Shown here in pieces: positions 7,392-55,161 of a stretch of 64,000 nucleotides of DNA. The notes under the pieces were generated by a model. It was not told where the DNA came from. It did not search any database and saw nothing but the letters and a program-made list of their open reading frames with translations. The translations under genes were made by a program, and so were the position numbers. The DNA lies in contig JAFGHI010000030.1 of NCBI GenBank assembly GCA_016930235.1, positions 43,834 to 107,833 of the forward strand, read 5' to 3'. How positions within the stretch are numbered: position 1 is the stretch's first letter; each line of letters starts with the position of its first letter. This DNA comes from Candidatus Omnitrophota bacterium. Its GTDB lineage: Bacteria; Omnitrophota; Omnitrophia; Omnitrophales; Aquincolibacteriaceae.

Positions 7392-7421
7392 TTGACACTT
7401 CTGATCTGCCTGTAATATAAT
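7392..7421 (+). promoter_or_regulatory. Sigma70-like promoter upstream of lysS (TTGACA-N18-TATAAT)
   Basis: TTGACA lies at 7392-7397 and TATAAT at 7416-7421, about 45 nt before the lysS start. Confidence 0.4.
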
Positions 7422-7467: not shown

Positions 7468-8895
7468 ATGAAACATAAAGAATGTGCCTACGGCGGGCGG
7501 TTTCTGCCTATGGAGTCTATTGAGACCCTCAGAAAAGAGTTCAAAGAAGGCCGCCAAGTCAAAATTGCGGGGCGTTTGATGTCCCGGCGGATCATGGGAA
7601 AAAGTACTTTTTCGGACTTAAAGGATCAGAATGGCCGTATTCAAATCTACGCCAAGAAAGATGTGCTCGGGGAAGAACTCTATCATGTCTTCACCTCTTT
7701 GAATATCGGGGATATCCTGGGCATTGAGGGAATTTTGTTCACTTCCAAAACAGGTGAACCTACGGTGCGCATTGAAAATTTCAAGGTCCTCTCGACGATT
7801 GTCCGGACTTTACCTGAAAAATGGCACGGCCTGAAGGATATTGAGACACGCTACCGTCACCGGTATGTTGATTTGATTGTCAATGATGATGTCCGCAAGA
7901 TTTTCAAAAAACGCAGTGATATCATCCGGGGGATACGCCAATTTTTAGACGACCGCGGATTTATGGAAGTGGAAACTCCCATGATGCAGCCGATTCCAGG
8001 CGGCGCTCGAGCAAAACCCTTCGTGACGCATCATAACGCACTTCATACCGATTTATATCTGCGAGTCGCTCCAGAACTTTATCTCAAAAGGCTCTTAGTC
8101 GGCGGGTTTGAGAAAGTCTATGAAATTAACCGGAACTTTCGCAATGAAGGGGTCTCCGTGCGCCATAATCCGGAATTTACGATGCTGGAAGTTTATCAGG
8201 CTTATGCGGATTACACGGACATGATGGAAATCACCGAAGAACTGATTTCCGGTTTGGTCAAGGAATGCTACGGCAAAGAGGAAATTCCTTTCGGTGACAA
8301 GACCCTTAACTTTAAGCGGCCGTGGAAGAGGATCTCTTTCTATGATGCGATTCAAGAAAAAACGGGTATTGATTTCCGCAAGATAAAGATTCGTGAAGGG
8401 GCCAAGAAATTAAAGATCGAAAGGTTGAGCGAGCTCAATGAAATGGAAGAGGTCGACATCTTAAATGAAATCTTTGATGAGGTGCTCCAAGACGAATTGT
8501 GGCATCCGACCTTTGTGATTGATTATCCGACGGTGATGACGCCTTTGGCCAAGGCCAAAGAAGAGGACCCCGATCTTGTTTACCGATTTGAGCTTTTCAT
8601 TGCCAAGATGGAGTTAGCGAATGCCTTTTCGGAACTTAATGACCCGATGATCCAAAGGGAACGTTTGACGGTTCAAAAAGAGATGATCGGAGAACACAAG
8701 GTGATTGATGAGGACTTCCTTATGGCTCTTGAATATGGGATGCCTTCAGCGGGTGGTTTGGGGATCGGAATTGACCGCTTGGTGATGCTGTTGACAAATC
8801 AGCATTCGATCCGGGAAGTGATTTTATTTCCGCAGCTGAAACCGGAAAAACCGGTCGCTGATTTGGACGGTGATGATGACGAAGGAAAAAAATAA
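7468..8895 (+). CDS. lysS: Lysyl-tRNA synthetase, class II
   Basis: It has an OB anticodon-binding domain (GRLMSRRIMGKSTFSDLKDQNGRIQIY) and class II motifs. The N-terminal extension is short. Confidence 0.9.
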   Translation: MKHKECAYGGRFLPMESIETLRKEFKEGRQVKIAGRLMSRRIMGKSTFSDLKDQNGRIQIYAKKDVLGEELYHVFTSLNIGDILGIEGILFTSKTGEPTVRIENFKVLSTIVRTLPEKWHGLKDIETRYRHRYVDLIVNDDVRKIFKKRSDIIRGIRQFLDDRGFMEVETPMMQPIPGGARAKPFVTHHNALHTDLYLRVAPELYLKRLLVGGFEKVYEINRNFRNEGVSVRHNPEFTMLEVYQAYADYTDMMEITEELISGLVKECYGKEEIPFGDKTLNFKRPWKRISFYDAIQEKTGIDFRKIKIREGAKKLKIERLSELNEMEEVDILNEIFDEVLQDELWHPTFVIDYPTVMTPLAKAKEEDPDLVYRFELFIAKMELANAFSELNDPMIQRERLTVQKEMIGEHKVIDEDFLMALEYGMPSAGGLGIGIDRLVMLLTNQHSIREVILFPQLKPEKPVADLDGDDDEGKK

Positions 8896-8928: not shown

Positions 8929-10230
8929 ATGGGGTTCGAAAGCTTTATTGCAAGCAAACATCTGACGCACCGGAGAAAGACGGGTTTTATTTCGCTGATT
9001 TCCGTTATTTCCATGGGGGGTGTGGCGGTCGGTGTGATGGCCCTCATCGTTGTCTTGGCGGTGATGAGCGGTTTTGACCGGGAGTTGAAACAAAAGATTG
9101 TCAACGTCCAGCCGCATATCCGGATCGAAAAAATGGGCGGATTAGACGATTATTGGCAAGTGGCCGAACGCATTGAATCCCTCCGGCTTCCAGGTTTGGA
9201 AAGTCTTTCTCCTTTTATTGAAGGTCAAGCCATTGTTCGTTCAGCGAAGAACGCAACCGGTGTTCTCTTAAAGGGGGTTGATGATACCAGCGAGAATTTG
9301 ACGATCTTTGAAAATCACATGGTCTATGGCAATGCGGATATGAGCGATGAGGTGACGATTAAAGTCAAGAGGAGTTTTCTTTTCCGCAAAAAAGAGATTG
9401 AGGAACGTCAAGGCGGGATTTTAATCGGTGAGGTTTTAGCTGCCCGTTTAGGTGTGCGGGTCGGAGATGATGTCATGCTGATTTCCCCTTTTCAAAAGAA
9501 GACGGGTTCCTTTACCTTTTCTGAAGCCGAAAGCCGGCCGTTTAGAGTCAAAGGCATCTTCCGCGTCGGCATGAGTGATTTTGATTCGACGTTAGCGCTC
9601 ATCAGCCTTGAGCAGGCACAGAACATGTATCATCTCGAAGGCCGTGTGACGGGTTTGAGCCTTCGATTTTTTGATGTGGACGATGCTGAGAAATGGAAAT
9701 GGGTTTTAAGAGGAGAATTTCCAGGCAATTATGTTGTTCGATCGTGGTATGACATGAACCACAATTTTTTTCAGGCGCTCAAGGTTGAGAAATCCGTGAT
9801 GACCATTCTCTTGGCCCTCATTATTTTGGTTGCCGTTTTTAATATCGTTTCGACCCTGACCATGACGGTTATGGAAAAGACCAAGGATATAGGTATTCTT
9901 CGTGCGATTGGTGCGACCAAGGCAAGCATCCGTAAAATATTTGTGATGGAGGGATTCGGAATCGGCTTTGTAGGAATTGCAGCGGGGGCGATTTTGGGGC
10001 TTGCCTTAGCCTTCAATCTGAATGAGGTGTCCGAATTTTTGAAAAGAACGACGGGACTCGAGGTCTTTCCAAGTGATATTTATTACTTTGATAAAATTCC
10101 CGTTGAGATCCATTCTCAAGATGTTTTATGGACGGTGACGCTGGGCTTGATTGCTTCGGTTTTGGCCGGTCTTTATCCTGCTCATCGTGCGGCCAATCTT
10201 AAACCCGTGGAGGCATTACGGTATGAATAA
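8929..10230 (+). CDS. Lipoprotein-releasing system permease, LolC/E (FtsX) family
   Basis: It has an N-terminal TM segment, a periplasmic domain and a C-terminal FtsX-like 3-TM bundle. It overlaps the following lolD by 8 bp. Confidence 0.8.
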   Translation: MGFESFIASKHLTHRRKTGFISLISVISMGGVAVGVMALIVVLAVMSGFDRELKQKIVNVQPHIRIEKMGGLDDYWQVAERIESLRLPGLESLSPFIEGQAIVRSAKNATGVLLKGVDDTSENLTIFENHMVYGNADMSDEVTIKVKRSFLFRKKEIEERQGGILIGEVLAARLGVRVGDDVMLISPFQKKTGSFTFSEAESRPFRVKGIFRVGMSDFDSTLALISLEQAQNMYHLEGRVTGLSLRFFDVDDAEKWKWVLRGEFPGNYVVRSWYDMNHNFFQALKVEKSVMTILLALIILVAVFNIVSTLTMTVMEKTKDIGILRAIGATKASIRKIFVMEGFGIGFVGIAAGAILGLALAFNLNEVSEFLKRTTGLEVFPSDIYYFDKIPVEIHSQDVLWTVTLGLIASVLAGLYPAHRAANLKPVEALRYE

Positions 10231-10936
10231 TTCGACCCATGATCTCCTGAAGGTTTATGATTTACGGAAGAATTATGAAATGCCGAGTGATGTCCTGCAG
10301 GTTTTGAAGGGAGTCGGTTTTTCAATGAAAGCCGGAGAGGTGACTTTTATCGTTGGGCGATCCGGGTCCGGAAAATCGACATTGCTTCATTTAATCGGAG
10401 GATTAGACCAGCCGACCTCCGGCAAGATCCTTTTTGAGGGCGAAGACATCGTTACGATGAAGGAAAAAACGCTCACGAAGATTAGAAACCGGCGTTTGGG
10501 GTATGTCTTTCAGTTTTATCATCTGCTGCCGGAACTGACGGTTTATGAGAATGTTATTCTGCCCAGTATGATTGCGGGCAGGTGCGAAAAGAAATGGGTC
10601 CGTGAAATTTTGAGGCGTGTCAAATTGCTGAGCCGGCAGAATCATTATCCCTCAGAGCTGTCGGGCGGAGAACAGCAGCGTGTTGCGATCGCGAGAGCTT
10701 TAGTCAATCAGCCGGCGCTGGTGTTGTGTGATGAACCGACGGGGAATCTTGATGTTGAAACCTCCGAGGAAGTCTTTTCGTTGATCGGCGATTTGAACCG
10801 GGAACATCACCAGTCTTTTTTGATTATTACGCACGACGAAGCTGTGGCTTGGCGTTACGAGCGGGTTTACCGTTTGGTGGACGGGATTTTGTTGAAGGTT
10901 GACCGGAATCAGGAGCATGCACGTTCAACCGTTTAA
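10223..10936 (+). CDS. lolD: Lipoprotein-releasing system ATP-binding protein LolD
   Basis: It has a Walker A (GRSGSGKST), an LSGGEQQR signature and a Walker B (LVLCDEPTGNLD). The ATG at 10223 is in frame and overlaps the permease stop. Confidence 0.8.
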   Translation: MNNSTHDLLKVYDLRKNYEMPSDVLQVLKGVGFSMKAGEVTFIVGRSGSGKSTLLHLIGGLDQPTSGKILFEGEDIVTMKEKTLTKIRNRRLGYVFQFYHLLPELTVYENVILPSMIAGRCEKKWVREILRRVKLLSRQNHYPSELSGGEQQRVAIARALVNQPALVLCDEPTGNLDVETSEEVFSLIGDLNREHHQSFLIITHDEAVAWRYERVYRLVDGILLKVDRNQEHARSTV

Positions 10937-10952: not shown

Positions 10953-11891
10953 ATGGGTTTTAAAAAAATATTAAAAGAGGAGAGATCCATGGCGCTTCAA
11001 GTTTATTTGAATGGGAAATGGGTGGCAAAAGAGGAAGCAAAAATATCAGTCTTTGATCATGGGCTTCTTTACGGAGACGGGGTTTTTGAAGGCATACGGT
11101 CTTATCAGGGGTTGGTTTTTAGATTGCAGGAGCATCTTGACCGGTTATGGGAGTCTGCACATACGTTGATGCTCAAAATTCCCATGAGCAAGCGTGAGAT
11201 GGAAAAGGCCATTGTGGAAACCTTGCGCATCAATAAACTTCTTGATGCCTATATTCGTGTTGTGATTACACGGGGTGTCGGGGATCTCGGACTGGACCCT
11301 GACAAGTGTAAGCAACCCACGATTTTTATTATTACGGATAAGATTGTGCTTTATCCGAAGTCTTTTTACCAGAAAGGGCTTGAGATTATTACCGTGCCAA
11401 CAGTGCGGAATTTGCCGGAAGCGGTTAATCCGTCGATTAAGAGCCTAAATTACCTTAATAATATTCTGGCGAAGATCGAAGCGAAGAATTCAGGCTGTGC
11501 GGAAGCCTTGATGCTGAACCACCAGGGATATGTGGCGGAATGTACGGGAGACAATGTTTTTATGGTGAAAGCCCCCAAGTCTTCGAAGGGGATGAGTCAA
11601 GTCGTGACGCCGCCTGTTTATTTAGGGGCCCTCAAAGGGATTACACGCCAAGCGATCATGGATTTAGCGGAGGCCAGGAAATATGAGGTTACGGAAACGA
11701 TTATGACGCGGCATGATCTTTTTAATGCCGATGAGGTTTTTCTGACGGGAACGGCGGCTGAAATTATCCCTGTTGTGAAAATTGACGGGCGTGTGATCGG
11801 GACGGGAAAACCGGGAAAAGTGACCGAAGCGCTTTTACGCGATTTCCATCGTTTAACGCGAACGGACGGAGTCCGGTATAAAATCGGATAA
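10953..11891 (+). CDS. ilvE: Branched-chain amino acid aminotransferase (class IV PLP fold)
   Basis: VYLNGKWV...KISVFDHGLLYGDGVFEGIRSY is typical of class IV BCAT. The true start may be the internal MALQ at ~10989. Confidence 0.7.
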   Translation: MGFKKILKEERSMALQVYLNGKWVAKEEAKISVFDHGLLYGDGVFEGIRSYQGLVFRLQEHLDRLWESAHTLMLKIPMSKREMEKAIVETLRINKLLDAYIRVVITRGVGDLGLDPDKCKQPTIFIITDKIVLYPKSFYQKGLEIITVPTVRNLPEAVNPSIKSLNYLNNILAKIEAKNSGCAEALMLNHQGYVAECTGDNVFMVKAPKSSKGMSQVVTPPVYLGALKGITRQAIMDLAEARKYEVTETIMTRHDLFNADEVFLTGTAAEIIPVVKIDGRVIGTGKPGKVTEALLRDFHRLTRTDGVRYKIG

Positions 11892-11921
11892 CTATTTTTT
11901 GTTTGAAGGAGTCCAAAGAGA

Positions 11922-12440
11922 ATGGTTTGTAATCTTTGCGGGACAAAAGAAGCGACGATCCATTTGACGGAAATCATCAACAATCAAATGATCGAGATCC
12001 ATATTTGTGAAGAGTGCGCAAATGAAAAAGGCACGGATTTTAAGACTCATTTTAGTTTCGGCGATCTTTTAGGGGGAATACCGGAATCCGGAAAGTCGCC
12101 AAAAACCGGCGAGAAGAAACTACCCAACCGGTGCCCTTCCTGCGGCTTGACTTATGAACAGTTCGGGAAAACGGGACGTTTAGGGTGCGGTGCCTGCTAT
12201 GACAGCTTTGCGCGTTTGTTGATCCCTTTGATTAAACGGATTCAGCGCTCGATTCGTCATGTGGGCAAAAAACCCGGTAAGGTCCTGAGCGAGCAAAAAA
12301 GTCCGCAAACTCTCAAAGATTTACAGGAGCGTTTAAGGAAATGCATTCAAGGTGAGGAATTTGAAGAGGCGGCAAGGTTGAGGGATGTGATTCGGCAAGT
12401 GGAAGAGAAACAGAAGAAACCTAAAAGGGGTAAAGAATGA
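11922..12440 (+). CDS. mcsA: Protein-arginine kinase activator McsA (four CxxC zinc fingers plus a UVR motif)
   Basis: It has four CxxC pairs, CNLCG, CEEC, CPSCG and CGAC. A C-terminal UVR motif (EEFEEAARLRDVIRQ) is present. It sits immediately upstream of mcsB and clpC. Confidence 0.75.
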   Translation: MVCNLCGTKEATIHLTEIINNQMIEIHICEECANEKGTDFKTHFSFGDLLGGIPESGKSPKTGEKKLPNRCPSCGLTYEQFGKTGRLGCGACYDSFARLLIPLIKRIQRSIRHVGKKPGKVLSEQKSPQTLKDLQERLRKCIQGEEFEEAARLRDVIRQVEEKQKKPKRGKE

Positions 12441-13501
12441 ATCCGCTGGATGCATTGGTCGAACAACCGGTCGAATGGCTGCGTGTCAGCGGGCCCGAGA
12501 GTGATATTGTCGTCAGTTCCCGTTTGCGGCTGGCCCGGAATCTTTTTGGGGTCCCTTTTTTGCAAAAGCTGGAGAATGAGCAAAAAGTCGAGGTTATTGA
12601 AACCGTCGAAAAGGCCATCCGAAGAAGCCCCCGGATGAAAGATGCACACTATCTTAAACGCGCGCAGTTAAGTGAGTTGGATCTGCAGTTCCTTCTTGAA
12701 CGGCATTTAATCAGCCGGGAACATGTCGAGGAGAAGGGAGAAAAGGCCGTTGCGATTACCTCCAACGAAGTGGTAAGCCTGATGGTGCTTGAAGAGGATC
12801 ATCTGAGACTCCAGGCTTTTCAGGCGGGGTTTAGTCTTATGGATACATGGAGGATTATCAATCAAATCGATGATGATCTGGAAAAAAATTTAAATTATTC
12901 CTTTAGTGCTTCACTGGGTTATTTGACGGCATGTCCGACCAATGTCGGGACGGGATTAAGAGCTTCTTGCATGTTGCATTTACCGGGCCTTGTTTTAACG
13001 AAACAAGTTCACAAGGTCCTTCAAGCGTTAGCTAAATTGAATTTAACAGCGCGCGGTTTATACGGTGAAGGAACTCAAGCCACGGGGAATTTTTTTCAAT
13101 TTTCGAATCAAACAACGCTGGGACAAAACGAGGATGAAATTATTGATAATCTCGCTGCGGTCATCCGGCAGGTCATTGAACATGAAAAGGAAGCACGGCG
13201 TTACTTGGTTGAAAAAAAGAGAGTGAAATTTCAGGATCAAGTCTGGCGTGCTCTGGGAACTTTGAGGTCAGCCCATGTCATTTCATCCACGGAGGCGACA
13301 CAGTTGCTTTCGTTGGTGCAATTGGGCCTCCAATTAGAGATTTTGAAAGGGGCCCTGACGAAACAGGAGTTAAATCTTTTGTTTCTCCTGATTCAGCCTG
13401 CTCATTTGCAGAAATTATCCCGCAAGGCCTTGAGTGCGCCGGAACGGGACATCCGAAGGGCAGAGCTGATTCGTCAGAAATTCCAGAAAATCTCACTTTA
13501 G
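12437..13501 (+). CDS. mcsB: Protein arginine kinase McsB (ATP:guanido phosphotransferase)
   Basis: It carries the CPTNVGTGLRAS phosphagen-kinase active-site motif. It overlaps the mcsA stop by 4 bp. Confidence 0.85.
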   Translation: MNPLDALVEQPVEWLRVSGPESDIVVSSRLRLARNLFGVPFLQKLENEQKVEVIETVEKAIRRSPRMKDAHYLKRAQLSELDLQFLLERHLISREHVEEKGEKAVAITSNEVVSLMVLEEDHLRLQAFQAGFSLMDTWRIINQIDDDLEKNLNYSFSASLGYLTACPTNVGTGLRASCMLHLPGLVLTKQVHKVLQALAKLNLTARGLYGEGTQATGNFFQFSNQTTLGQNEDEIIDNLAAVIRQVIEHEKEARRYLVEKKRVKFQDQVWRALGTLRSAHVISSTEATQLLSLVQLGLQLEILKGALTKQELNLLFLLIQPAHLQKLSRKALSAPERDIRRAELIRQKFQKISL

Positions 13502-13575
13502 TCGATGCATTAAATGATTTGTCAATAGTGTCATCATCAATAGGTCAAGAATAGGCCATAGGAGCCTTTGGGAGG

Positions 13576-16035
13576 TTGAGAATGTTCGATCGTTTTACGG
13601 AAAGAGCAAGGAAAGTCATCATTTTAGCGAAGGAAGAAGCAAAACGGTTTAATCACGATTATATCGGGACTGAACACATCTTGCTGGGATTGATCAAGGA
13701 AGGGGAAAGTGTTGCTGCGGCGGTTTTGCAGAATCTTGGGTTGTCCCTTGATACGATTCGATTGGAAGTCGAAAAACTGGTCCAGTTTGGACCCAGTACC
13801 ATCGTTTCCGGAGATATTCCGTTTACTCCGAAAGCCAAGAAAGTGATTGAACTGGCAATGGATGAGGCGAGACGGCTGGGGCATAACTATATCGGGACAG
13901 AACATCTTTTGCTGGGCTTGATCAAGGAAGGCGAAGGCGTAGCGAGTCATGTTTTAATGAATGTCGGCCTTGATTTAAACAAGGTTCGTGCAGAAGTCAT
14001 TAAGCTTCTGGGTTCGTCAACTCCCAGCGGGTCGGGGGGCGGACCCGGCGGGGGAGGCGGGGTTGGAACGGCGCGCGGCAAGACAAAAACTCCGGCATTG
14101 GATTCCTTCGGTCGTGATTTGTCCACTTTGGCACGGGACGGCAAGCTGGATCCGGTTGTCGGACGTTCGGATGAAATCGAGCGTGTGATTCAAATCCTTG
14201 CGCGCCGTACGAAGAACAATCCGGTCCTTTTAGGCGAGGCAGGTGTGGGAAAGACGGCCATTGTGGAAGGTCTTGCTCAAAAAATTATCGCGGGGGATGT
14301 TCCCGAAATCTTAGCGGACAAGAGGATTGTTGTTTTGGATCTCGCGCTGATGGTTGCCGGAACAAAATACCGTGGTCAATTTGAAGAACGTATTAAAGCC
14401 GTGATGGATGAAATCCGTCGTACAGAGAATGTGATGATTTTTGTCGATGAGATCCATACCTTGGTAGGAGCAGGGGGAGCGGAAGGCGCAATCGATGCTT
14501 CGAATATCCTGAAGCCGGCCCTCGCACGCGGTGAAATACAATGCATTGGTGCAACGACGTTGGATGAATACCGCAAATATATTGAAAAAGATGCGGCGTT
14601 GGCCCGGAGATTTCAAACAATCATGGTGGATCCGCCTTCGGTGGATGAGTCCGTGCAGATTTTGAAGGGTTTGCGGGACCGATACGAAGCGCATCATCGA
14701 GTCAAGATAACCGATGAGGCCATTGAGGCTTCGGTGAAACTTTCGGATCGCTATATTTCGGGGCGTTTTCTGCCGGATAAAGCGATTGATATCATCGATG
14801 AAGCAGCCTCTCGTGCGAGGTTATCCGTAACGACGCTTCCTAAAGATCTCAAAAAGATTGAAACGGAGATCGAGGCCTTCAAAAGAGAAAAAGAAGCTGC
14901 CATTAAAGCACAGGATTTTGAGAAGGCGGCCAAGCTTCGTGATCAAGAGCGTCAGGCCAAAGAAGAATTGACGCGCGTCAAAAAGAATTGGAAAGAATCG
15001 AAATCGGAAGTTGAAGTCCAAGTCACCGAAGAAGACATTTCGCATATCGTATCGAAATGGACAGGGGTTCCTCTGGCCCGGCTGGAAGAAAAGGAAACGG
15101 CGCGGCTCCTCAGGATGGAAGATGAACTCCATCGCCGGATTATCGGCCAGGATGAAGCGATCCGGGTCATTTCCCATGCGGTTCGCCGCTCACGTTCGGG
15201 TTTGAGAAATCCGAGGCGTCCGATCGGTGCGTTTATTTTCCTGGGGCCGACCGGCGTTGGCAAAACGCTTCTCGCACGGGGGCTTGCGGAATTTATGTTT
15301 GGTGACGAGGATGCCATGGTGGCTATTGATTGTTCAGAATATGGAGAGAAGTTTAATGTTTCGCGTTTAGTGGGTGCCCCTCCCGGGTATGTGGGGTATG
15401 AAGAGGGAGGACAATTGACTGAAAAGGTACGTCGGCGGCCTTATTCTGTGGTGTTGTTTGATGAGATTGAGAAAGCCCATCCCGATGTTTTTAACATCAT
15501 GCTTCAAGTGATGGAGGAAGGGCGTCTCACCGATTCTTACGGTCGGAAAGTTGATTTTAGAAATACCATTTTGATCATGACTTCGAACGTAGGGGCGTCT
15601 CTTATCAAACGCGACGGTGATTTAGGGTTCAAACCTCAGATGGAAGATATTAATTATGAATCATTAAAGCGAAAGCTGCTTGATGAGACAAAAAAGGTCT
15701 TCCGTCCTGAATTTTTGAACCGTGTGGATGATACGATCGTTTTTCATCCGCTCACTCGCCAGGATCTCGAGCAGATTATCATGATCGAATTGCGGGAAGT
15801 GACTGACCGGTTGAAAGATAAGAAACTGGACTTGGATCTCTCTCCCGAGGTCATGAAATTCTTGATCGACAAAGGCTATGACCCTATCTTCGGTGCACGA
15901 CCGCTTAGACGTACCATTCAACGGTATATCGAAAATATTTTGGCTGAGGAGATCCTTTCCGGGAAGTTCAAGGAAGGGGATAAAATTCAGGCGGTTTTGC
16001 GGGGAGAGCAGATTCAATTTGAGAAAACATCTTAA
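13576..16035 (+). CDS. clpC: ATP-dependent Clp protease ATP-binding subunit ClpC
   Basis: It has doubled Clp_N repeats, two AAA+ modules ([16 protein letters not shown]) and a UVR linker ([10 protein letters not shown]). Confidence 0.9.
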
Positions 16036-16051: not shown

Positions 16052-17965
16052 ATGCGGTTTGGTTTTTGGCGTGTCTTCATAGGAAGTTTTTTGCTTCTTT
16101 CATGCCTTGCGGGGATTCCCTACCTTTGGGTGACTTCGGAAGTTCAAAAAGACGAGTTTAAGGCGCTTGCTGAAAAAAAAGCAAGCGAATTTCTAAGCGC
16201 CCATGTCGAGATCGATCGCATTCGTGTCGGGATGATCAACCGTGTGGCCTTGAGCGGGCTTAGGATCCGGTCGCAAGCGAAGGACGATGACGCTTACCGG
16301 ATTCATGTTGATCAAATTGTTTTTCGGTATCATCCCCTTGCGTTTTTAAGCCGCAAGCTGTCGGTTCCCTCGGGGATCATTTTGCAGGCCCCGAAACTGC
16401 TGGTCAAACAGACGGAGTTCTCCTATGACCTGCTTAAGGATTTTAAATTCGGTACGGGTGCGGAAAGTGTCTCGTCGCTTGAGTTTAAAGGGGGCGAGAT
16501 ATTTATCTCGGTTCCGGGATTCCGATCCAATATTCATGTGCAGAATATCAATGGGGTGTTAAGACCGCAAATGAATGGCGAAATTCGTGTGAATTTAAAA
16601 GGCCATTTAAAGGGTTTGCTTAACGGTGAAGCGAAATTGCGCGGGATTGTCGCGCCCTTTGAGAGGCGTCATGATTTGGATCTTGAATTGGATTCAGTCA
16701 GTTTAAATGATGAACTTTCGATCCCGCTCAAGGATATGAAGGGCAAGATTCGATGGGTGAATCAGGAGTTTTATTTTGATGGTGTCCAGGCATCCGTTTA
16801 TGGGTGGGATACCTTGATTAAAGGAGAGCTCAAAAATCTTCGAACGGCACCCGTTCTTGCTTTCAGTTGGTCAGCGGGCAAGAAATATCCGGCTTTGATG
16901 CTGACCTTCTTGGCGGATTTTTCAAATGAATATGTTGAAGGCAGCTTGCAGTGGTTGAAAGAAGACAAGCATGTTTTTCGAGGGAATATCAAGCGAGAAA
17001 AATGGAATTTTATATTTAACGATGTTTTGGTAGATGACCAATATTCAGGTAGCGGCCATCTGGATGTGGAATCCGGATACTCCCGTTTTCAATTTCAAAG
17101 AGGGGCGCAGCGTTTCGCCGCGCAGACAAATTTGCGTGATTTGAACTTCCATCTTGCTTTTAATCTGGAGCACGCCAAAATTTACGGACTCGATTTTGTT
17201 ACCTCAGCCGAGATTGAACTCAAGCCGACGAGATCTTGGGAAGAGGGAAGGCTATGGAGTTTCGACGGTCTTTTCCGAACGGATTATTTTGTCCTGGAGT
17301 ATGCGCCATTTTCGGATCTCCAAGGCCGTTTTCAAATTAACTCGTTTGGGGTTCATGATATTTTTTGTTCTTGGGGGCACGCTTTTGAAATGAACGGTGA
17401 TATTTCATTTACATCAAAACGTCCCGAGGGAAAATTCGTGCTTCAGGTTAATGGGTTTGATTTAGCGGGCGTCAAGAATTTTGCTTCAAAACCTTTACCG
17501 AAAACGTTGGGAGGGTATTTGGAGGGTAAGTTGAAGATGGAAGGTGTTTTATCAAAACCGGAGATCTCCGGTTCTTTCAGTGTCAAAGACGGCGTTCTAG
17601 GAAAACTGGAATACGACCGCGGGATGATTCATTTTCATGGTTTTGCGCCTTATCTGCCGTTAGAAGATTCGCGAATTTTAAGGGGCAGAACCGAGCTTTA
17701 CTTAAGGGGGGCCTTGGATCTTTCGCTTGCCAATATGTTTCACGGCATTAGGATTGAAACGGCCGACCATTTTGTTTTGTGGAAAGGTTGGGAATTTACG
17801 ACCAGTGATACAGAAGGGGATCTTGAAATCGATCATATCATTTCGAGACTTCCCAAGATTGCTGTCAAGGCTGGCCTGACGACCGGAGGGGCTACTTTAG
17901 GCGATACGGATAATATGCAGCAGGATGAGGGGTATGTTGCCATTGGACCGAAGGTCCGGTTCTAA
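16052..17965 (+). CDS. Membrane-anchored periplasmic protein, AsmA/TamB-like (putative)
   Basis: It has a single N-terminal TM segment followed by a long beta-rich region. The C-terminal G-x-L-x-G periodic repeats (GGYLEGKLKMEGVLSKPEISGSFSVKDGVLGKL) are reminiscent of the AsmA_2/DUF490 domain. It sits directly upstream of mlaEFD. Confidence 0.4.
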   Translation: MRFGFWRVFIGSFLLLSCLAGIPYLWVTSEVQKDEFKALAEKKASEFLSAHVEIDRIRVGMINRVALSGLRIRSQAKDDDAYRIHVDQIVFRYHPLAFLSRKLSVPSGIILQAPKLLVKQTEFSYDLLKDFKFGTGAESVSSLEFKGGEIFISVPGFRSNIHVQNINGVLRPQMNGEIRVNLKGHLKGLLNGEAKLRGIVAPFERRHDLDLELDSVSLNDELSIPLKDMKGKIRWVNQEFYFDGVQASVYGWDTLIKGELKNLRTAPVLAFSWSAGKKYPALMLTFLADFSNEYVEGSLQWLKEDKHVFRGNIKREKWNFIFNDVLVDDQYSGSGHLDVESGYSRFQFQRGAQRFAAQTNLRDLNFHLAFNLEHAKIYGLDFVTSAEIELKPTRSWEEGRLWSFDGLFRTDYFVLEYAPFSDLQGRFQINSFGVHDIFCSWGHAFEMNGDISFTSKRPEGKFVLQVNGFDLAGVKNFASKPLPKTLGGYLEGKLKMEGVLSKPEISGSFSVKDGVLGKLEYDRGMIHFHGFAPYLPLEDSRILRGRTELYLRGALDLSLANMFHGIRIETADHFVLWKGWEFTTSDTEGDLEIDHIISRLPKIAVKAGLTTGGATLGDTDNMQQDEGYVAIGPKVRF

Positions 17966-17979: not shown

Positions 17980-18798
17980 GTGGAAAAGGTAAATTTTAAA
18001 ACATTGAAACGACTGATATCCGTAAAACGGTGGCTTCAAGCTATCGGACATCAGTCGATTGTTTTGGCGACGAATGCAGGAGGGATTTCTTACCTTTTTG
18101 TGGACACGGTTAGGACATTCGCCAAAACGCGGTTGCGTTGGAAATCAACGATGGACCAAATGATGAAGATGAGCGTGACTTCTTTGCCTTTGGTTTTCCT
18201 GACAGCGTTATTTACCGGGATGGTTTTGACCCTGCAGTCTGCTTATCAGCTCCGTTTATTTGCCGCAGAACAATTTACATCGGATCTGGTGGCTCTTTCG
18301 ATGACACGCGAATTGGGGCCTGTCTTGACGGCGATGGTAGTTGCGGGCCGGGTTGGGGCCTCCATTGCTGCGGAATTAGGGACCATGAAAGTGACGGAGC
18401 AGATTGATGCCTTGAAGGCATCGGCGGTGGACCCCGTTCGCTATTTGGTGGTTCCGCGTTTCGTGGCGGGTGTCATCGGTCTTTTTGTCTTAACCATCTA
18501 TGCCGATTGCATTGGGATTTTCGGAGGTTACGTCATTGCGGTTTTCAAATTGGGTATCAGCTCGCATCAATACATCAAACGAAGCATTGATGTTTTGATG
18601 ATCAAGGACGTGATTACCGGATTGATTAAAGCTTTTTTCTTTGGAGGCATTATTGCGACGGTTGGCTGTTATTTTGGCTTTAAAGCACAAGGGGGCGCCG
18701 AAGGGGTCGGGAGGGCGACGACCATAGCGGTGGTGACGGCCTTAGTGATGATTATTGCTTCGGATGCCCTTTTCACGGCTATTTTTTACTTTTTCTAA
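17980..18798 (+). CDS. mlaE: Phospholipid ABC transporter permease MlaE
   Basis: Its conserved core (MTRELGPVLTAMVVAGRVGASIAAELGTMKVTEQIDAL) is typical of MlaE. Confidence 0.85.
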   Translation: MEKVNFKTLKRLISVKRWLQAIGHQSIVLATNAGGISYLFVDTVRTFAKTRLRWKSTMDQMMKMSVTSLPLVFLTALFTGMVLTLQSAYQLRLFAAEQFTSDLVALSMTRELGPVLTAMVVAGRVGASIAAELGTMKVTEQIDALKASAVDPVRYLVVPRFVAGVIGLFVLTIYADCIGIFGGYVIAVFKLGISSHQYIKRSIDVLMIKDVITGLIKAFFFGGIIATVGCYFGFKAQGGAEGVGRATTIAVVTALVMIIASDALFTAIFYFF

Positions 18799-18803
18799 AA
18801 AAG

Positions 18804-19556
18804 ATGATTGAGATACGCGGTCTCTTTAAAAGTTTTGGAGTGAGTCCAGTTTTGAAAGGATTAGATTTGTCCATTCGAGACGGGGAGACCCTTGTGATTA
18901 TCGGACGATCGGGTTGCGGAAAGAGTGTCCTTTTGAAGCATATTATGGGACTCTTGGAACCTGATCAGGGGCAGGTCTTAATCGACGATGTCGATATCTT
19001 TTCTCTCGACGATCGCCAGCTTGAAGGGTTCCGGCTCCGGTTGGGCATGCTCTTTCAAGGGGCAGCCCTTTTTGATTCCTTGTCGGTCGAAGAGAATGTC
19101 GGATTTTCGCTTTATGAACATACAAGGCTGCCGATTCCCGTCATTCGAAAGAAAGTGGCGGAGAAGTTGGACTTAGTGAACCTTAGCGGAATCGAAGATC
19201 TAATGCCTTCGGAGCTTTCCGGAGGCATGAAAAAGAGAGTTGGTTTGGCCCGAGCTATTTGTAATGAACCGAAAATTATTCTTTATGATGAGCCCACAAC
19301 GGGGCTGGACCCGATCACGGCGGATGCGATCAACGATTTAATTTTACGCATGCAGGAGAAACTCAAAGTGACCTCGGTGGTTGTGACTCATGATATGACC
19401 AGCGCCTATAAAGTTGCTAACCGGATTGCGATGCTTTATGGTGGGCGGATTGTCGGCATTGGAACGCCCGAGGAAATTCGTCAGACGAATAATCCTATTA
19501 TTAAACAATTTGTGACTGGGTCGGCAGAGGGACCCATTACGGATAAACATAAGTGA
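18804..19556 (+). CDS. mlaF: Phospholipid ABC transporter ATP-binding protein MlaF
   Basis: It has a Walker A (GRSGCGKS), an LSGGMKKRV signature and a Walker B. Confidence 0.85.
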   Translation: MIEIRGLFKSFGVSPVLKGLDLSIRDGETLVIIGRSGCGKSVLLKHIMGLLEPDQGQVLIDDVDIFSLDDRQLEGFRLRLGMLFQGAALFDSLSVEENVGFSLYEHTRLPIPVIRKKVAEKLDLVNLSGIEDLMPSELSGGMKKRVGLARAICNEPKIILYDEPTTGLDPITADAINDLILRMQEKLKVTSVVVTHDMTSAYKVANRIAMLYGGRIVGIGTPEEIRQTNNPIIKQFVTGSAEGPITDKHK

Positions 19557-19562
19557 GGCGTT

Positions 19563-20369
19563 ATGAGAAAATCGAGAAATGAAACCCTCGTGGGTATGTT
19601 TGTTATCTTAGGTTTTATCTTGTTAACAACCGTTGTTTTCTTTGTCAGCGGTGTTTATTTCTTCCGCTCGGGGTATTCGTTGAATGTGATGTACGATTTT
19701 ATCAGTATTCTGGATAAGGGTGCTCCTGTGCGTTTGGCAGGGGTCCGTGTCGGAGAAGTAAGCCGTGTCGATCTTATCTATGATCAAAACAAAGAAAGAT
19801 CGCGGGTCAAAGTAAAACTTTTTATTGAAAAGGGGGTGGAAATTAAAGAAAACTATTTGTTTAAGATTCAAGGGACTCACATTTTAAGTGAGCCGCATAT
19901 TGAAGTCGAACCCCAGCCCGGAAATGCCCCATTGGTTCGTGATGGGCATCTGATGGAGGGGTACGATCCGGTCCCTGTTGAAGCCTTGATTGAGCGCGGG
20001 CATCGAATTGCCGATAATTTTAATGAGATTATTGAGAGGTTACGGGATGCCCTTCGCGATGAGGAAACCGGACGTGCCATGAAAGACATTGTAACTCATC
20101 TGGCGGGCGTGACGGGATCTTTGGATAAGGTTTTAAAGGGATCCGAGGATGATCTAACAGGTGCGGTGAAGGATCTTCAGGCGTCGACAGAGTCCCTTCG
20201 TAACATTCTTGATACGATTGAAAAGGGAGAAGGAACTGCGGGAAAACTTCTCGTCAAAGACGAGCTTTATCAGGAAATCCGAGAATTTGTCGCGGAGATC
20301 AAAGCTCATCCCTGGAAATTAATGAAACGGGATGACAAAGACGATAAGAAAGGGTTCCTCTTTTTTTAA
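19563..20369 (+). CDS. mlaD: MCE-domain protein MlaD
   Basis: It has an N-terminal TM segment followed by an MCE domain, and follows mlaEF. Confidence 0.8.
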   Translation: MRKSRNETLVGMFVILGFILLTTVVFFVSGVYFFRSGYSLNVMYDFISILDKGAPVRLAGVRVGEVSRVDLIYDQNKERSRVKVKLFIEKGVEIKENYLFKIQGTHILSEPHIEVEPQPGNAPLVRDGHLMEGYDPVPVEALIERGHRIADNFNEIIERLRDALRDEETGRAMKDIVTHLAGVTGSLDKVLKGSEDDLTGAVKDLQASTESLRNILDTIEKGEGTAGKLLVKDELYQEIREFVAEIKAHPWKLMKRDDKDDKKGFLFF

Positions 20370-20414: not shown

Positions 20415-21509
20415 TTGATTATGGTAGCGATTATTCGAATTTTATTTGTTCTGGGCTGTGCGGGATATGGTTATGTTGCCAATATCTCGTGGCTCCCGGA
20501 TTTGGGAGATCCCTTCACGGCTTATGCGGGGGCTGGGATTGGATTTTTCATTGGAATGTTGGTGATCTTGATTGATATATTTTTCAAGCAGTTTACGGTT
20601 CGAAATATCTTATCAATCTTGATCGGAGCAGGGCTGGGTCTTTTGGTGCACCGCCTTTTCATGATGGTGATTGTGTACGCGGATTTTCCCCTTGCCTCAG
20701 AAAGGCAACTCGGGATTGCCACGGCGATTATCTTCACCTATCTGGGGGTCATCACGGTTCTAAGAGGCCAGGATGAATTTTCTCTGATGCTTCCGTTTGT
20801 GACCTTAGACAAGAAAGGTGCTAAGGAAGAACTGATTTTGCTTGATACGAGCGTCATTATTGACGGGCGCATTGCGGATATCTGCAAGACCCATTTTCTT
20901 CCGGGTAAACTTATCTTACCCCGTTTTGTTTTAAAAGAGCTTCAATTGATCTCGGATTCTTCGGATCCCTTAAAACGGAACCGGGGGCGGCGGGGATTGG
21001 ATGTTCTCAATAAGATCAAAGAAAATCCGAATTTGATTGTCAAAATCAATGAGATGGATTTCCCTGAATTTTCCACCGTCGATGCCAAACTGGTCAAGAT
21101 GGCTCAGGTTCTGGATGCCAAGATTTTTACCAACGATTTTAACCTGAACAAAGTTGCTGAGCTTCAGGGTGTGAAGGTTCTCAATATTAATGAACTTGCG
21201 AATGCTTTGAAACCGATTGTGATGCCCGGGGAAATGATGCAGGTCAAGATCCTTAAAGAGGGCAAAGAGCATGACCAAGGTGTCGCATACCTGGATGACG
21301 GAACGATGGTGGTCGTTGACAATGGAAGACGCCGAATTGGGCAAACCATGAATGTATCCATCACCAGTGTTCTTCAAACACAAGCAGGCCGAATGATTTT
21401 TGCGAAGATACCTGAAAATGGCGACAGACCGGATCGCAATAATGACCAACGGCGAGACCGGCATCAACGGCATGATCAGCGCCGTTTCGGGCAGGGCGGT
21501 GGGAGGTAA
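20415..21509 (+). CDS. PIN/TRAM domain protein with N-terminal TM segments (YacL-like)
   Basis: It has 3-4 N-terminal TM helices, a PIN domain (LLDTSVIIDGR) and a C-terminal TRAM-like region. It sits upstream of ispDF, as in Bacillus. Confidence 0.7.
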   Translation: MIMVAIIRILFVLGCAGYGYVANISWLPDLGDPFTAYAGAGIGFFIGMLVILIDIFFKQFTVRNILSILIGAGLGLLVHRLFMMVIVYADFPLASERQLGIATAIIFTYLGVITVLRGQDEFSLMLPFVTLDKKGAKEELILLDTSVIIDGRIADICKTHFLPGKLILPRFVLKELQLISDSSDPLKRNRGRRGLDVLNKIKENPNLIVKINEMDFPEFSTVDAKLVKMAQVLDAKIFTNDFNLNKVAELQGVKVLNINELANALKPIVMPGEMMQVKILKEGKEHDQGVAYLDDGTMVVVDNGRRRIGQTMNVSITSVLQTQAGRMIFAKIPENGDRPDRNNDQRRDRHQRHDQRRFGQGGGR

Positions 21510-21514
21510 GGTGG

Positions 21515-22711
21515 ATGCGTGTCAGCCTCATCGTCGCGGCAGGGGGAAGCAGCCTTCGATTCCGTGAAAGTTTAATTCGTCGCGGGACAAAACACGGGAA
21601 GGAATCAGAGGCAGGGAAACTGTTTCAATGGCTCGCAGGTAAACCTGTTCTGGTGCACAGCCTTTTAGCCTTCAAGAAGATACCCCAGATCCAAGAGACC
21701 TTTGTTGCCATTGCTCCGGCCCTCAAGAAGCCGTTGGAGAAGGTGCTTAAGCAAGAAGGGCTTGTTCACGTACGAGTTGTCCGGGGCGGAAAGACGAGGG
21801 CCGAATCTGTTTGGAATGCACTCCGGCGAACGAGAACAAACCATGATTGGGTGATGGTTCATGACGGGGCGAGGCCTCTTGTGAACTCCGAGACTATCCG
21901 GAAGGTTTTACGGGCAGCCAAACACGCAGATGGTGTTGTCTTAGCCAGCAAGGTTGTTCCTACCATTAAGGAAGTGGATTCCGCAGGGACTATACAACAG
22001 ACGGTTGATCGTACGGTTTTGCGTGAAGCCGAAACACCGCAGCTCGTGAAAAGAGATTTATTGATAAGGGCCTACCGGAAGGTGCCAAACGCTATGAAAG
22101 CGACTGACGAAGCCTCTTTGCTTGAATTGATCGGCAGATGCGTCAAAGTCATTACTCATGAGGATTGGAACCCTAAAATTACGACCCTTGCGGATTTGGA
22201 GCGTGCGAAGGGATATATCGAAGGCGAGGAGAACCCGATCTTTTATGGGTTAGGCTTTGACTCCCACAAACTGGCGCTTGGGCGTCCCTTTTATCTTGGA
22301 GGCGTGCGGATCCCATATGCAAAAGGAGCGCTAGGCCATTCCGATGGGGATGCGCTTCTCCATGCGATTACCGATGCAATTTTAGGTGCCATCGGAGAGG
22401 GTGATATCGGAGAATGGTTTTCGGATCGAGATCCCCGCTGGAAGAATGTTCGAAGCGGCCGATTGTTGAGAAAAGTTGTTGCGAGGGCGGATGAAAAAGG
22501 ATGGCGGACAGAGCATGTAGATTCCGTCATTATCCTCCAAAAACCAAAATTAAGTCCCTACAAAGAGAAGATCCGGAAAAAGATTGCATCGGACCTCTCA
22601 ATCCCTCCTGCCCGGGTTTCTGTGAAGGCCAAAACGATGGAAGGCCTTGAGAGCATGGAAGGCGGTGATGTTGTTATTTGCGAGGCCATTGTTTCGATGA
22701 GGAGAAAATAG
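21515..22711 (+). CDS. ispDF: Bifunctional IspD/IspF (MEP cytidylyltransferase / MEcPP synthase)
   Basis: The N-terminus VSLIVAAGGSSLRF matches IspD. The C-terminus YGLGFDSH...GHSDGDALLHAITDAILGA matches IspF. Confidence 0.9.
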   Translation: MRVSLIVAAGGSSLRFRESLIRRGTKHGKESEAGKLFQWLAGKPVLVHSLLAFKKIPQIQETFVAIAPALKKPLEKVLKQEGLVHVRVVRGGKTRAESVWNALRRTRTNHDWVMVHDGARPLVNSETIRKVLRAAKHADGVVLASKVVPTIKEVDSAGTIQQTVDRTVLREAETPQLVKRDLLIRAYRKVPNAMKATDEASLLELIGRCVKVITHEDWNPKITTLADLERAKGYIEGEENPIFYGLGFDSHKLALGRPFYLGGVRIPYAKGALGHSDGDALLHAITDAILGAIGEGDIGEWFSDRDPRWKNVRSGRLLRKVVARADEKGWRTEHVDSVIILQKPKLSPYKEKIRKKIASDLSIPPARVSVKAKTMEGLESMEGGDVVICEAIVSMRRK

Positions 22712-22712
22712 G

Positions 22713-24134: not shown

Positions 24135-24143
24135 GGAGTCGAT

Positions 24144-28627: not shown

Positions 28628-28662
28628 GAAGCCATGGCTCACAGGAAATCATTAATTCATTC

Positions 28663-54616: not shown

Positions 54617-54713
54617 AATTAAGGTATCAGTTCAAAATCGCGACAATAAGTAACATTCCTATCATCGACACCTGAATCATCCAATGCCCAAAGAAAAAAC
54701 GAATGGACGATTA

Positions 54714-54742
54714 TTGACATTTCAAACATCGTATGGTATATT
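54714..54742 (+). promoter_or_regulatory. Near-consensus sigma70 promoter, TTGACA-N17-(TGg)TATATT
   Basis: TTGACA lies at 54714-54719 and TATATT at 54737-54742, with an extended -10 TG at 54734-54735. It sits in a 300-bp AT-rich gap. Confidence 0.5.
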
Positions 54743-54754
54743 TTAAGCATTATA

Positions 54755-54784
54755 AATGTATTATAAAGTAATTTATAATACATT
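54755..54784. promoter_or_regulatory. Perfect 13-bp inverted repeat AATGTATTATAAA-gtaa-TTTATAATACATT just downstream of the predicted TSS
   Basis: It is read directly from the sequence, at about +6 to +35 relative to the predicted TSS. Confidence 0.45.
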
Positions 54785-55138: not shown

Positions 55139-55161
55139 TTTAAAATTGGGACGGCAATCCG

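Follow-up and report, generated by a model that had tools for sequence, protein, structure and literature searches.

The phospho-arginine (pArg)-ClpC pathway is consistently called Gram-positive in the literature we surveyed (PMC11046695, PMC8370763), and homologues in some Gram-negative bacteria have been noted (PMC11046695). The 64-kb stretch of DNA analysed here, called the window below, belongs to a Candidatus Omnitrophota MAG with a diderm-type genome, and its first-pass annotation reported a Firmicutes-style mcsA-mcsB-clpC module at 11922-16035. Is this module complete, how might it be expressed, and is it out of place in such a genome? Our data indicate that McsA, McsB and ClpC form a complete module in a diderm-type genome, that the module is a member of an already known system, and that mcsAB-clpC is the normal inherited state across Omnitrophota and the neighbouring phyla, i.e. 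real but ordinary.

All three reading frames were found where the annotation had put them, as real genes in the order mcsA, mcsB and clpC (Table 1). Each of the encoded proteins is collinear over its full length with its solved B. subtilis counterpart. Conservation extends to the cysteines of the zinc fingers, the catalytic residues, the pArg pockets and the loop that docks ClpP. The genes had been described as contiguous and overlapping, which is true for mcsA and mcsB (4 bp, ATGA) but not for mcsB and clpC, which lie 80 bp apart. The McsB protein already carries its name at NCBI, and the module genes are likewise named there.

Table 1. Features of the module and its surroundings, in window coordinates.
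Feature	Position	Strand	Basis
sigma-70-type promoter TTGACA-18-TATAAT upstream of lysS	7392..7421	+	12/12 consensus positions
lysS (lysine--tRNA ligase), first gene of conserved block	7468..8895	+	NF001756, 640.5 bits vs cutoff 468
lolC/E-type lipoprotein-release permease	8929..10230	+	TIGR02212, 378.6 bits vs 362.45; Pfam MacB_PCD, FtsX
lolD-like ABC ATPase	10223..10936	+	best NCBIfam match LolD TIGR02211, 269.4 bits, under cutoff 307.75
ilvE, 30 bp 5' of mcsA	10953..11891	+	NF006185, 459.4 bits vs cutoff 363
mcsA, zinc-finger activator of McsB	11922..12440	+	4 CxxC + UVR, homology to McsA
mcsB, protein arginine kinase (predicted)	12437..13501	+	PF00217, NF002194, alignment to 6TV6
mcsB-clpC spacer, RBS GGGAGG, no conserved element	13502..13581	+	locus comparison, RNA fold, promoter scan
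clpC, AAA+ unfoldase	13582..16035	+	Pfam domains, alignment to 3J3S
637-aa membrane-anchored all-beta protein	16052..17965	+	position conserved in L001, L003, L005
mlaE-mlaF-mlaD lipid-transport genes	17980..20369	+	MlaE TIGR00056, 255.9 bits vs 212.2; MlaD Pfam; MlaF best match
yacL-like PIN/TRAM gene, ispDF fusion, gltX, cysS	20415..25646	+	downstream half of block common to Firmicutes clpC region

McsA has 172 aa. Its four CxxC pairs can be read directly off the sequence (C3/C6, C29/C32, C71/C74 and C89/C92) and Pfam places a UVR motif at residues 131-162 (E 2e-6), as the annotation had claimed. Residues 1-166 align with B. subtilis McsA (8WTB_B, E 1.3e-29), the Z2 region also matches 8GQD_E, and the protein has the make-up of an McsA, i.e. 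two zinc-coordinating modules and a C-terminal UVR-like helix. It scores 148 bits against the Bacillus-type NCBIfam equivalog NF053706, under the cutoff of 210, which is expected because it is a distant orthologue.

McsB has 354 aa, of which residues 52-252 match PF00217 (E 8e-65); this is the only domain found by Pfam, with no match to the N-terminal phosphagen-kinase domain. The NCBIfam model for protein arginine kinase (NF002194) gives 428.8 bits, over its cutoff of 385, and the Bacillus-type model NF053707 gives 381 bits, with its cutoff of 500 not reached. Residues 13-349 align with B. subtilis McsB 6TV6 (E 7e-86) at ~43% identity, and the C-terminal dimerisation domain McsB_C (PF27454) is annotated for the protein. 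The EEDH motif at residues 119-122 includes the catalytic E120 and D121, and the signature CPTNVGTGLRAS previously noted in McsB was located at residues 166-177, C166 being the Cys of the CPTNVGTG motif. The pArg receptor pocket is intact, with S284, R337, D338 and R341 at the positions of S285, R337, D338 and R341 in B. subtilis. Among 83 McsBs the E121, D122, C167 and R341 columns are invariant, the R337 column is Arg in 82 and the S285 column is Ser or Thr in 79, and the window McsB conforms at all of these. We predict that the Omnitrophota McsB has protein-arginine kinase activity.

A departure from B. subtilis lies elsewhere in the kinase. In B. subtilis McsB an auto-phosphorylated Arg194 clamp stabilises a closed octameric chamber, whereas the window McsB has Lys193 and Lys189 at the Arg194 and Arg190 positions. 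The former position is Arg in 7/7 Firmicutes sequences, and Lys in the window and mostly Lys in the PVC and Omnitrophota sequences; the clamp is a feature of the Firmicutes enzyme and not part of the McsB family definition. The phenotype of R194K in B. subtilis has been described (PMC8370763). Since the window McsB lacks the clamp yet keeps the pArg receptor pocket, the oligomeric gating of the Omnitrophota McsB probably differs from that in B. subtilis.

ClpC has 817 aa and runs collinear with its B. subtilis counterpart of 810 aa (residues 1-803 against 3J3S, 1083 bits); its matches to ClpB break into two stretches. Pfam recognizes two Clp_N repeats, a UVR-type M-domain and two AAA modules, in agreement with the UVR linker described by the annotation; the M-domain is short, unlike the long one of ClpB, and carries FEKAAKLRD at 446-454. 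The GTEH pArg-pocket motifs lie at residues 29-32 and 105-108, and MFDRFTER also aligns to B. subtilis ClpC. Residues equivalent to T7, E32 and E106 of the pArg pockets and to K85 and F436 are retained in the alignment to B. subtilis ClpC; the roles of these residues are given in PMC12583610. The ClpP-docking tripeptide LGF at 681-683 is aligned with VGF of B. subtilis ClpC. The likely start of clpC is the ATG at 13582, behind the RBS, and not the TTG at 13576. GTCA repeats in the spacer before it were considered as an element and judged to be chance.

Could these homologues nevertheless have another job, McsB being a small-molecule (phosphagen) kinase or ClpC a ClpP-independent chaperone only, with no pArg degron? 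PMC11046695 states that the activity of such homologues in Gram-negative bacteria "has never been identified", the Arg194 clamp is replaced by Lys, and no clpP was seen in the window. Among the flanks of relatives examined, clpP is near mcsAB/clpC in one related locus (L027) only, and a YwlE-type pArg phosphatase was found neither as an LMW-PTP match in the window nor by tblastn in the related loci with an approximate YwlE query. We nonetheless regard this alternative as very unlikely. McsB combines the lack of the N-terminal phosphagen-kinase domain with the McsB-specific dimerisation domain and the intact pocket, the translation of mcsB is coupled to that of a full-length mcsA, and in ClpC the LGF loop and both pArg pockets are preserved. 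A ClpX-like ATPase in the window also has an IGF loop, which implies a ClpP partner, and the chlamydial ClpC degrades only pArg-casein (PMC10128030). The coupling of the window ClpC to ClpP is a prediction, under which ClpP must be encoded outside the 64-kb window.

As a protein-quality-control pathway the module would work as follows. McsA, with its two zinc modules, would bind the McsB kinase and activate it, and McsB would phosphorylate arginines on proteins that are unfolded or unwanted. The tag would be read by the pair of pArg pockets in the N-domain of ClpC, and ClpC would then unfold the tagged substrate and pass it to ClpP via the LGF loop. The CtsR repressor/operator loop of the Firmicutes version would have no part in it.

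The annotation had stated that ctsR and its heptad operator are missing, and our searches agree. Pfam and NCBIfam detect no CtsR, ClpP, LMW-PTP or HrcA family among all the major ORFs of the window, and tblastn with CtsR queries found no ctsR in it. With a query confirmed as CtsR by Pfam, tblastn hit only six Firmicutes loci, directly 5' of mcsA, and 0/75 distinct non-Firmicutes loci. The tandem heptad operator RGTCAAANANRGTCAAA has no match in the window at 0-1 mismatch, and the eight matches at 2-3 mismatches (8.7 expected by chance) include none near the operon. As a positive control, boxes at 0-1 mismatch were detected 5' of ctsR in 5/6 Firmicutes loci; none was found in 1.17 Mb of the other loci. 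The gene upstream of mcsA is ilvE, a branched-chain aminotransferase, as the annotation had said. The 30-bp ilvE-mcsA spacer (11892-11921), which it had proposed to search, has the RBS GAAGGAG but no recognisable sigma-70 promoter and no CtsR box.

Our promoter scan, which covered the sigma-70 consensus only, points to the perfect match upstream of lysS as the proposed start of a long co-directional unit that would hold the module. Of 20 non-Firmicutes loci, 14 have an equivalent promoter (>=11/12) within 250 bp 5' of lysS, and nine of these promoters are perfect. At the same threshold there is no match 5' of lolC, ilvE, mcsB or clpC in the loci compared, nor 5' of mcsA where ilvE or lolD precedes it, and the counts are 0/30 for the mcsA and 0/32 for the clpC upstream regions. 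The stand-alone mcsAB operons of Planctomycetota have their own strong promoter, TTGACA-16-TAGAAT, so the scan is able to find one where it is present. Taken over the whole 11-kb region, promoters and terminators are about as numerous as expected by chance. The consensus promoter scan and the tight co-directional packing suggest an operon lysS-lolC-lolD-ilvE-mcsA-mcsB-clpC. Since the module has neither a nearby ctsR and operator nor a recognisable promoter of its own, and the only conserved sigma-70 promoter is at lysS, it is probably expressed by housekeeping read-through rather than by CtsR-type stress derepression.

It is also conceivable that the module is stress-regulated after all, whether by a repressor (CtsR-like or another, such as HrcA) whose gene lies elsewhere, by an alternative sigma factor, for instance a heat-shock one, or from a promoter within ilvE or mcsB, in which case constitutive read-through would be wrong. 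B. subtilis McsB targets HrcA as well (PMC11046695), 80 bp between mcsB and clpC is a comparatively large gap for the array, the scan had the scope given above, and the sequence covered is the 64-kb window of the genome. We consider such regulation unlikely, as besides the CtsR box the CIRCE element is missing (<=3 mismatches) in both the window and 81 distinct related loci, and the mcsA and clpC promoter counts above are zero. Across loci, neither the spacer before mcsA nor the one before clpC is conserved, and both are short; the one between mcsB and clpC is conserved in neither sequence nor length (L001, L003-L005), its RNA is unstructured (fold z = -0.03), and the sigma-70 scan found no promoter-like site in it.

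The surroundings of the module match those of a diderm. LolCDE and MlaEFD had been taken as signs of an outer membrane; MlaEFD and lolD are there, but the lol genes are one LolC/E-type permease gene and lolD, not three. The diderm envelope itself stands, with LolCE and MlaE over curated cutoffs and MlaD, MlaF and LolD present. The 637-aa protein behind clpC has no Pfam or NCBIfam family match, and its AF2 model is unusable (pLDDT 44.6).

The order lysS-lolC-lolD-ilvE-mcsA-mcsB-clpC…mlaEFD-yacL-ispDF is found again in Omnitrophota relatives with McsB identities as low as ~45-50%, with lysS keeping its position. Verrucomicrobiota loci have ilvE-mcsAB-clpC, and in both these and the Omnitrophota loci ilvE stays next to mcsA (median gap ~26 bp). 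In Planctomycetota, in anammox bacteria and in Binatia mcsAB is present, sometimes together with clpC. Of the 80 GTDB loci nearest to the window McsB, at least 67 carry the label of a diderm phylum (Omnitrophota, Planctomycetota with the anammox bacteria, Verrucomicrobiota or Binatia); CtsR is missing from the flanks of all of these, and the Arg194 clamp from most. The oddity implied by calling the module Firmicutes-style thus disappears. The first-pass annotation itself had allowed that the arrangement would be unremarkable if relatives commonly carried mcsAB with ctsR elsewhere; it is unremarkable because the relatives do commonly carry mcsAB, though no ctsR was seen in the flanks examined.

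The same comparison bears on whether the module was recently acquired from a Firmicutes donor with ctsR left behind. The system is textbook Firmicutes, the McsB identity to Firmicutes (43-48%) is little below that to Planctomycetota and Verrucomicrobiota (45-52%), and horizontal transfer of the chlamydial mcsAB was suggested by the Chlamydia authors (PMC10128030). Yet divergent Omnitrophota share the flanks lysS-lolCD-ilvE upstream and mlaEFD-yacL-ispDF downstream, and Verrucomicrobiota and Binatia share part of them. The McsB phylogeny, which the annotation had called for, follows the phyla and splits Firmicutes, represented by seven sequences preselected by similarity to the query, from the non-Firmicutes clades at 99% bootstrap. 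The window subclade has 95%, and the wider Omnitrophota-type clade is weak at 36%. The module GC content (0.477) agrees with that of the window (0.469) and of the flanks, and the family searches of the window ORFs detected no mobile-element genes nearby. Such a recent transfer is already largely refuted and, in our view, extremely improbable. Read from the gene identities, the residue conservation, the local lack of ctsR and its box, the synteny and the phylogenetic pattern, the module is quite likely a bona fide pArg protein-quality-control module, vertically inherited within Omnitrophota and not imported from Firmicutes.

Compared with the ctsR-mcsA-mcsB-clpC operon of B. subtilis and other Firmicutes, the window has the three structural genes in identical order and keeps the residues described above, including the M-domain Phe of ClpC. 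It differs in having no ctsR, heptad operator or dedicated promoter, in the lysS-lolCD-ilvE genes upstream and in its diderm host. Chlamydia trachomatis, from published descriptions, is likewise a PVC-group diderm with McsA, McsB and ClpC but no CtsR. It has McsAB (CT675/CT676), and its ClpC with ClpP1P2 degrades pArg-casein in vitro (PMC10128030, PMC11708050). Its mcsAB operon is tRNA-flanked and apart from clpC, whereas the window genes are contiguous inside a housekeeping array. The stand-alone mcsA-mcsB of Planctomycetota encode homologous McsA and McsB (45-52% McsB identity), also without ctsR and, in most cases, with Lys at the Arg194 position; they differ by the lack of an adjacent clpC, their own promoter and, in some, a tandem mcsA duplicate. 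The window by itself matters little: its genes are already named at NCBI, the biochemistry is known from Firmicutes, and Chlamydia has set a precedent among diderms. More is gained from the comparison across phyla. It gives those who study Chlamydia and planctomycetes grounds for regarding McsAB as part of the inherited core of proteostasis, and it offers research on McsB natural "R194K" kinases that may be gated with neither the octamer clamp nor transcriptional feedback.

The gene block around the module is syntenic with the clpC region of Firmicutes. The Paenibacillus locus L075 reads ctsR-mcsA-mcsB-clpC-radA-disA-…-PIN/TRAM-ispD-ispF; the downstream PIN/TRAM yacL, ispD/F, gltX and cysS genes are common to the window, which has the beta-rich 637-aa protein and mlaEFD instead of radA-disA. 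We speculate, as a serious but tentative possibility, that the CtsR-less and promoter-less mcsA-mcsB-clpC is near the ancestral form of the pArg system, vertical in Omnitrophota, PVC and Binatia within an ancient lysS…clpC…yacL-ispDF-gltX/cysS block, and that the CtsR loop and the pArg194-gated octameric chamber are later Firmicutes additions. If so, the arginine-phosphate tag would be an old and widespread bacterial degron rather than a Gram-positive speciality, and McsAB would have come to Chlamydia by vertical descent within PVC and not by horizontal transfer.

The three co-directional genes mcsA, mcsB and clpC are found in the ORF list where the first-pass annotation had placed them (see the table below). 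They had been described as contiguous and overlapping, which holds for mcsA and mcsB with an overlap of 4 bp (ATGA) but not for mcsB and clpC, which are 80 bp apart. McsA carries the reported four CxxC pairs (C3/6, C29/32, C71/74 and C89/92) and UVR motif, and its residues 1-166 align with B. subtilis McsA as crystallised together with McsB (8WTB_B, E 1.3e-29). The only domains of McsB are the catalytic phosphagen-kinase domain (PF00217, E 8e-65) and the McsB C-terminal domain (PF27454, precomputed); the protein scores above the cutoff of the NCBI 'protein arginine kinase' model (428.8 bits vs 385), and residues 13-349 align with B. subtilis McsB (6TV6, E 7e-86). ClpC matches B. subtilis ClpC over its full length with 1083 bits, and is built of two Clp_N repeats, an M-domain of the UVR type and a pair of AAA+ modules. 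The gene 5' of mcsA indeed encodes a branched-chain aminotransferase (ilvE) and not CtsR, and MlaE, MlaF and MlaD are encoded shortly 3' of clpC. As for the claimed LolCDE, a LolC/E-type permease and a LolD-like ATPase are encoded just before the aminotransferase gene, but only a single permease was found. At 0.477 the GC content of the module matches the window (0.469), and no mobile elements were found near the module.

Coordinates of the features discussed in the text (L handles denote related McsB loci from GTDB genomes)
Feature	Location	Strand	Remarks
lysS promoter-like site	window 7392-7421		TTGACA-18-TATAAT
Genes on one strand	window 7468-45156		~38 kb
Hairpin at ilvE end	window 11871-11889		rejected as terminator
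mcsA	window 11922-12440	+	172 aa
mcsB	window 12437-13501	+	354 aa
clpC	window 13576-16035 (long ORF)	+	817 aa from plausible start ATG 13582 behind GGGAGG ribosome-binding site
637-aa protein	window 16052-17965	+	N-terminal membrane helix, ~35 beta strands
637-aa protein orthologues	L001 13615-15525, L003 9267-11135, L005 13597-15390
tmk-holB-metG-tatD	window 25646-29436
ClpX-like AAA+ ATPase	window 33665-35221	+	518 aa
ORF-poor stretch	window 54617-55743		~1.1 kb
FmdB-type zinc-ribbon ORF	window 55744-56049
LMF1 homologue	window 61075-62664	+
Tandem mcsA paralogues	L032 4588-5780, L036 8931-9986, L039 8931-9987, L045 8950-9959, L065 9009-9987
ctsR locus lacking a CtsR box at <=1 mismatch	L069 8909-9331
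TTGACA-16-TAGAAT-type sites	L039 8847, L032 4510, L020 9430, L015 5319, L040 9067, others

In the phospho-arginine (pArg) pathway, established for both B. subtilis and S. aureus (PMC8370763, PMC11046695, PMC12583610), McsB activated by McsA tags proteins, and ClpC-ClpP reads the tag and degrades the tagged proteins. We aligned 83 McsBs using MAFFT, with B. subtilis numbering for the pArg receptor site. All 83 have the catalytic Glu/Asp of EEDH and the Cys of CPTNVGTG, and the receptor site is nearly invariant, with R341 in 83/83, R337 in 82/83 and Ser/Thr at position 285 in 79/83; the window McsB keeps every one of these residues plus Asp338. The window ClpC keeps the two GTEH pockets, equivalent to Glu32 and Glu106, and the counterparts of Thr7, Lys85 and the M-domain Phe436, and carries an LGF ClpP-docking tripeptide; work on S. 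aureus ClpC has documented how these residues act in pArg sensing and in control of the resting state (PMC12583610). In B. subtilis McsB the phosphorylated Arg194 closes the octameric kinase chamber, and the R194K mutant is as heat sensitive as the deletion (PMC8370763). The window McsB has Lys193 at this position, and the Arg190 position is likewise Lys. Across the alignment the Arg194 position is Arg in 7/7 Firmicutes McsBs. Lys predominates there in Omnitrophota and Planctomycetota, and most Verrucomicrobiota have Gln or Pro.

We confirm that the window module belongs to the known pArg system, is genuine and encoded in a diderm, and has no ctsR in the window; it differs from the known system in lacking a local CtsR loop, a recognisable promoter dedicated to it and the Arg194 clamp. 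A diderm precedent is Chlamydia trachomatis, which has McsAB and ClpC, and whose ClpCP2P1 degrades casein only if it is arginine-phosphorylated (PMC10128030; PMC11708050). Homologues are also present in some Gram-negative Proteobacteria, where 'activity has never been identified' (PMC11046695). Our literature search found no paper tying McsB to Planctomycetes, Verrucomicrobia or Omnitrophota.

The first-pass annotation was right that ctsR and its operator are missing at the module. Pfam or NCBIfam searches with every substantial window ORF turned up no CtsR, ClpP, LMW-PTP or HrcA; the CtsR heptad operator has 8 matches in the window at 2-3 mismatches vs 8.7 expected by chance, none of them near the operon. 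As a positive control we used CtsR queries from two loci, L075 of Paenibacillus (Pfam-verified, PF05848 1e-37) and L034. By tblastn these place ctsR immediately 5' of mcsA in 6/6 Firmicutes loci, and find it neither in the 75 other distinct loci nor in the window. CtsR boxes with 0-1 mismatch lie 5' of ctsR in 5/6 Firmicutes loci, and are absent from both the window and 1.17 Mb of non-Firmicutes loci. The Firmicutes-like locus L069 has ctsR 5' of mcsA, yet no CtsR box at <=1 mismatch. The GTCA repeats in the mcsB-clpC spacer (TGTCAAT..TGTCATC..GGTCAAG) were considered as a CtsR box and rejected, since they differ from the consensus by at least 3 mismatches and lie in a spacer that is conserved neither in sequence nor in length among the close relatives L001 and L003-L005, and is unstructured (fold z = -0.03). 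The CIRCE/HrcA operator has no match at <=3 mismatches anywhere searched. Among the partner genes, a tblastn search of the loci matched ClpP only in L027 and YwlE in none, a weak negative. The window encodes a ClpX-like AAA+ ATPase scoring 343 bits, just below the NCBIfam ClpX cutoff of 359, which has no N-terminal zinc-finger domain, a C-terminal extension of ~100 aa and an IGF ClpP-docking loop (LEIGFSS).

The module would be transcribed within a long housekeeping unit that begins with lysS, as we infer from consensus matching. The ilvE-mcsA spacer is 30 bp long and holds a ribosome-binding site only. The sole strong promoter-like site in the region of 7-18 kb is a perfect one 5' of lysS, and the genes that follow share a single strand over ~38 kb, most of them <50 bp apart. 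A promoter matching at least 11/12 lies within 250 bp 5' of lysS in 14/20 non-Firmicutes loci, 9 of them perfect. At the same threshold no promoter was found upstream of lolC (0/22), ilvE (0/29), mcsB (0/72), clpC (0/32) or mcsA preceded by ilvE or lolD (0/30). The stand-alone mcsAB of Planctomycetota have a conserved TTGACA-16-TAGAAT-type promoter at 11/12 before mcsA in 13/37 loci, and the scan therefore picks up a dedicated promoter where one is present. In several of these promoters the spacer includes a homopolymeric stretch of ~7-9 C or G bases. The terminator-like hairpin at the ilvE end was rejected, since its stem lies within conserved coding sequence, that for the DGVRY C-terminus, and terminator-like hairpins are no more numerous in the region than chance predicts. 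The GC skew is positive over the whole window, and its tmk-holB-metG-tatD order resembles the origin-proximal order of B. subtilis.

The module had also been called Firmicutes-style and, by implication, an oddity; the observation itself is confirmed, but this part of its interpretation does not stand, as a CtsR-less module in a diderm is the rule in this lineage and is already annotated. An identical McsB is at NCBI under the name 'protein arginine kinase [Candidatus Omnitrophica bacterium]', and over 120 McsB clusters are 64-75% identical to it, the named ones nearly all from Omnitrophica/Omnitrophota. Scanning one genome per GTDB species gave 600 or more McsB loci. We kept the best 80 of these, which are spread over Omnitrophota, Planctomycetota (Pirellulales, Gemmataceae, Isosphaeraceae, Phycisphaerae and anammox genera), Verrucomicrobiota and Binatia, with only 6 from Firmicutes.

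Gene orders were derived by tblastn with the window proteins and one Pfam-annotated relative. The Omnitrophota-type order, lysS-lolC-lolD-ilvE-mcsA-mcsB-clpC-(637-aa-type protein)-mlaE-mlaF-mlaD-PIN/TRAM-ispDF-gltX/cysS, extends to ~45-50% McsB identity. We found ilvE-mcsA-mcsB-clpC in Verrucomicrobiota, with lolC-lolD 5' in one case, lysS-lolC-lolD-mcsA-mcsB-clpC in Binatia and two further MAGs, mcsA-mcsB-clpC in anammox bacteria, and mcsA-mcsB alone in most other Planctomycetota. Comparison with the Paenibacillus order, ctsR-mcsA-mcsB-clpC-radA-disA-…-PIN/TRAM-ispD-ispF, shows that synteny between the window block and the Firmicutes clpC region holds on either side of a swapped middle, which is radA-disA in Firmicutes but the 637-aa protein and mlaEFD in the window. 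In a neighbour-joining tree the McsBs cluster by phylum, with bootstrap values of 99% for the Firmicutes split, 100% for Verrucomicrobiota and 95% for the window subclade, and only 36% for the wider Omnitrophota-type clade. Distribution, synteny and the McsB tree taken together argue for vertical inheritance of the module, and a recent import from Firmicutes is disfavoured by these sequence comparisons. We speculate that an ancient and widespread pArg system was CtsR-less, and that CtsR and the octamer gating were added by Firmicutes, a scenario we consider plausible but somewhat short of probable.

Six MAGs labelled Planctomycetales/Planctomycetia at ENA (L006, L007, L010, L012, L018 and L021) have the full Omnitrophota gene order, and their McsBs nest among Omnitrophota-labelled sequences in the tree; their taxonomic labels may be wrong. 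Two tandem mcsA paralogues are encoded 5' of mcsB in Gemmataceae and Isosphaeraceae genomes.

The 637-aa protein is fast evolving (25-38% identity among orthologues), and its placement between clpC and mlaE is kept in Omnitrophota. It has no Pfam/NCBIfam family and only two word-index homologues, and its AF2 model is unreliable (pLDDT 44.6). It is possibly a lipid-transport partner of MlaEFD of the AsmA/TamB type. Elsewhere in the window, an ORF-poor stretch has no ORF >84 aa and lies within the lowest-GC part (0.417); neither this stretch nor the rest of the window had a match in Rfam, tRNA or tandem-repeat scans. It is directly followed by a small FmdB-type zinc-ribbon ORF. The window also encodes a bacterial homologue of the lipase maturation factor LMF1 (PF06762 3e-53, PF25179 3e-49), a family mainly known from eukaryotes.
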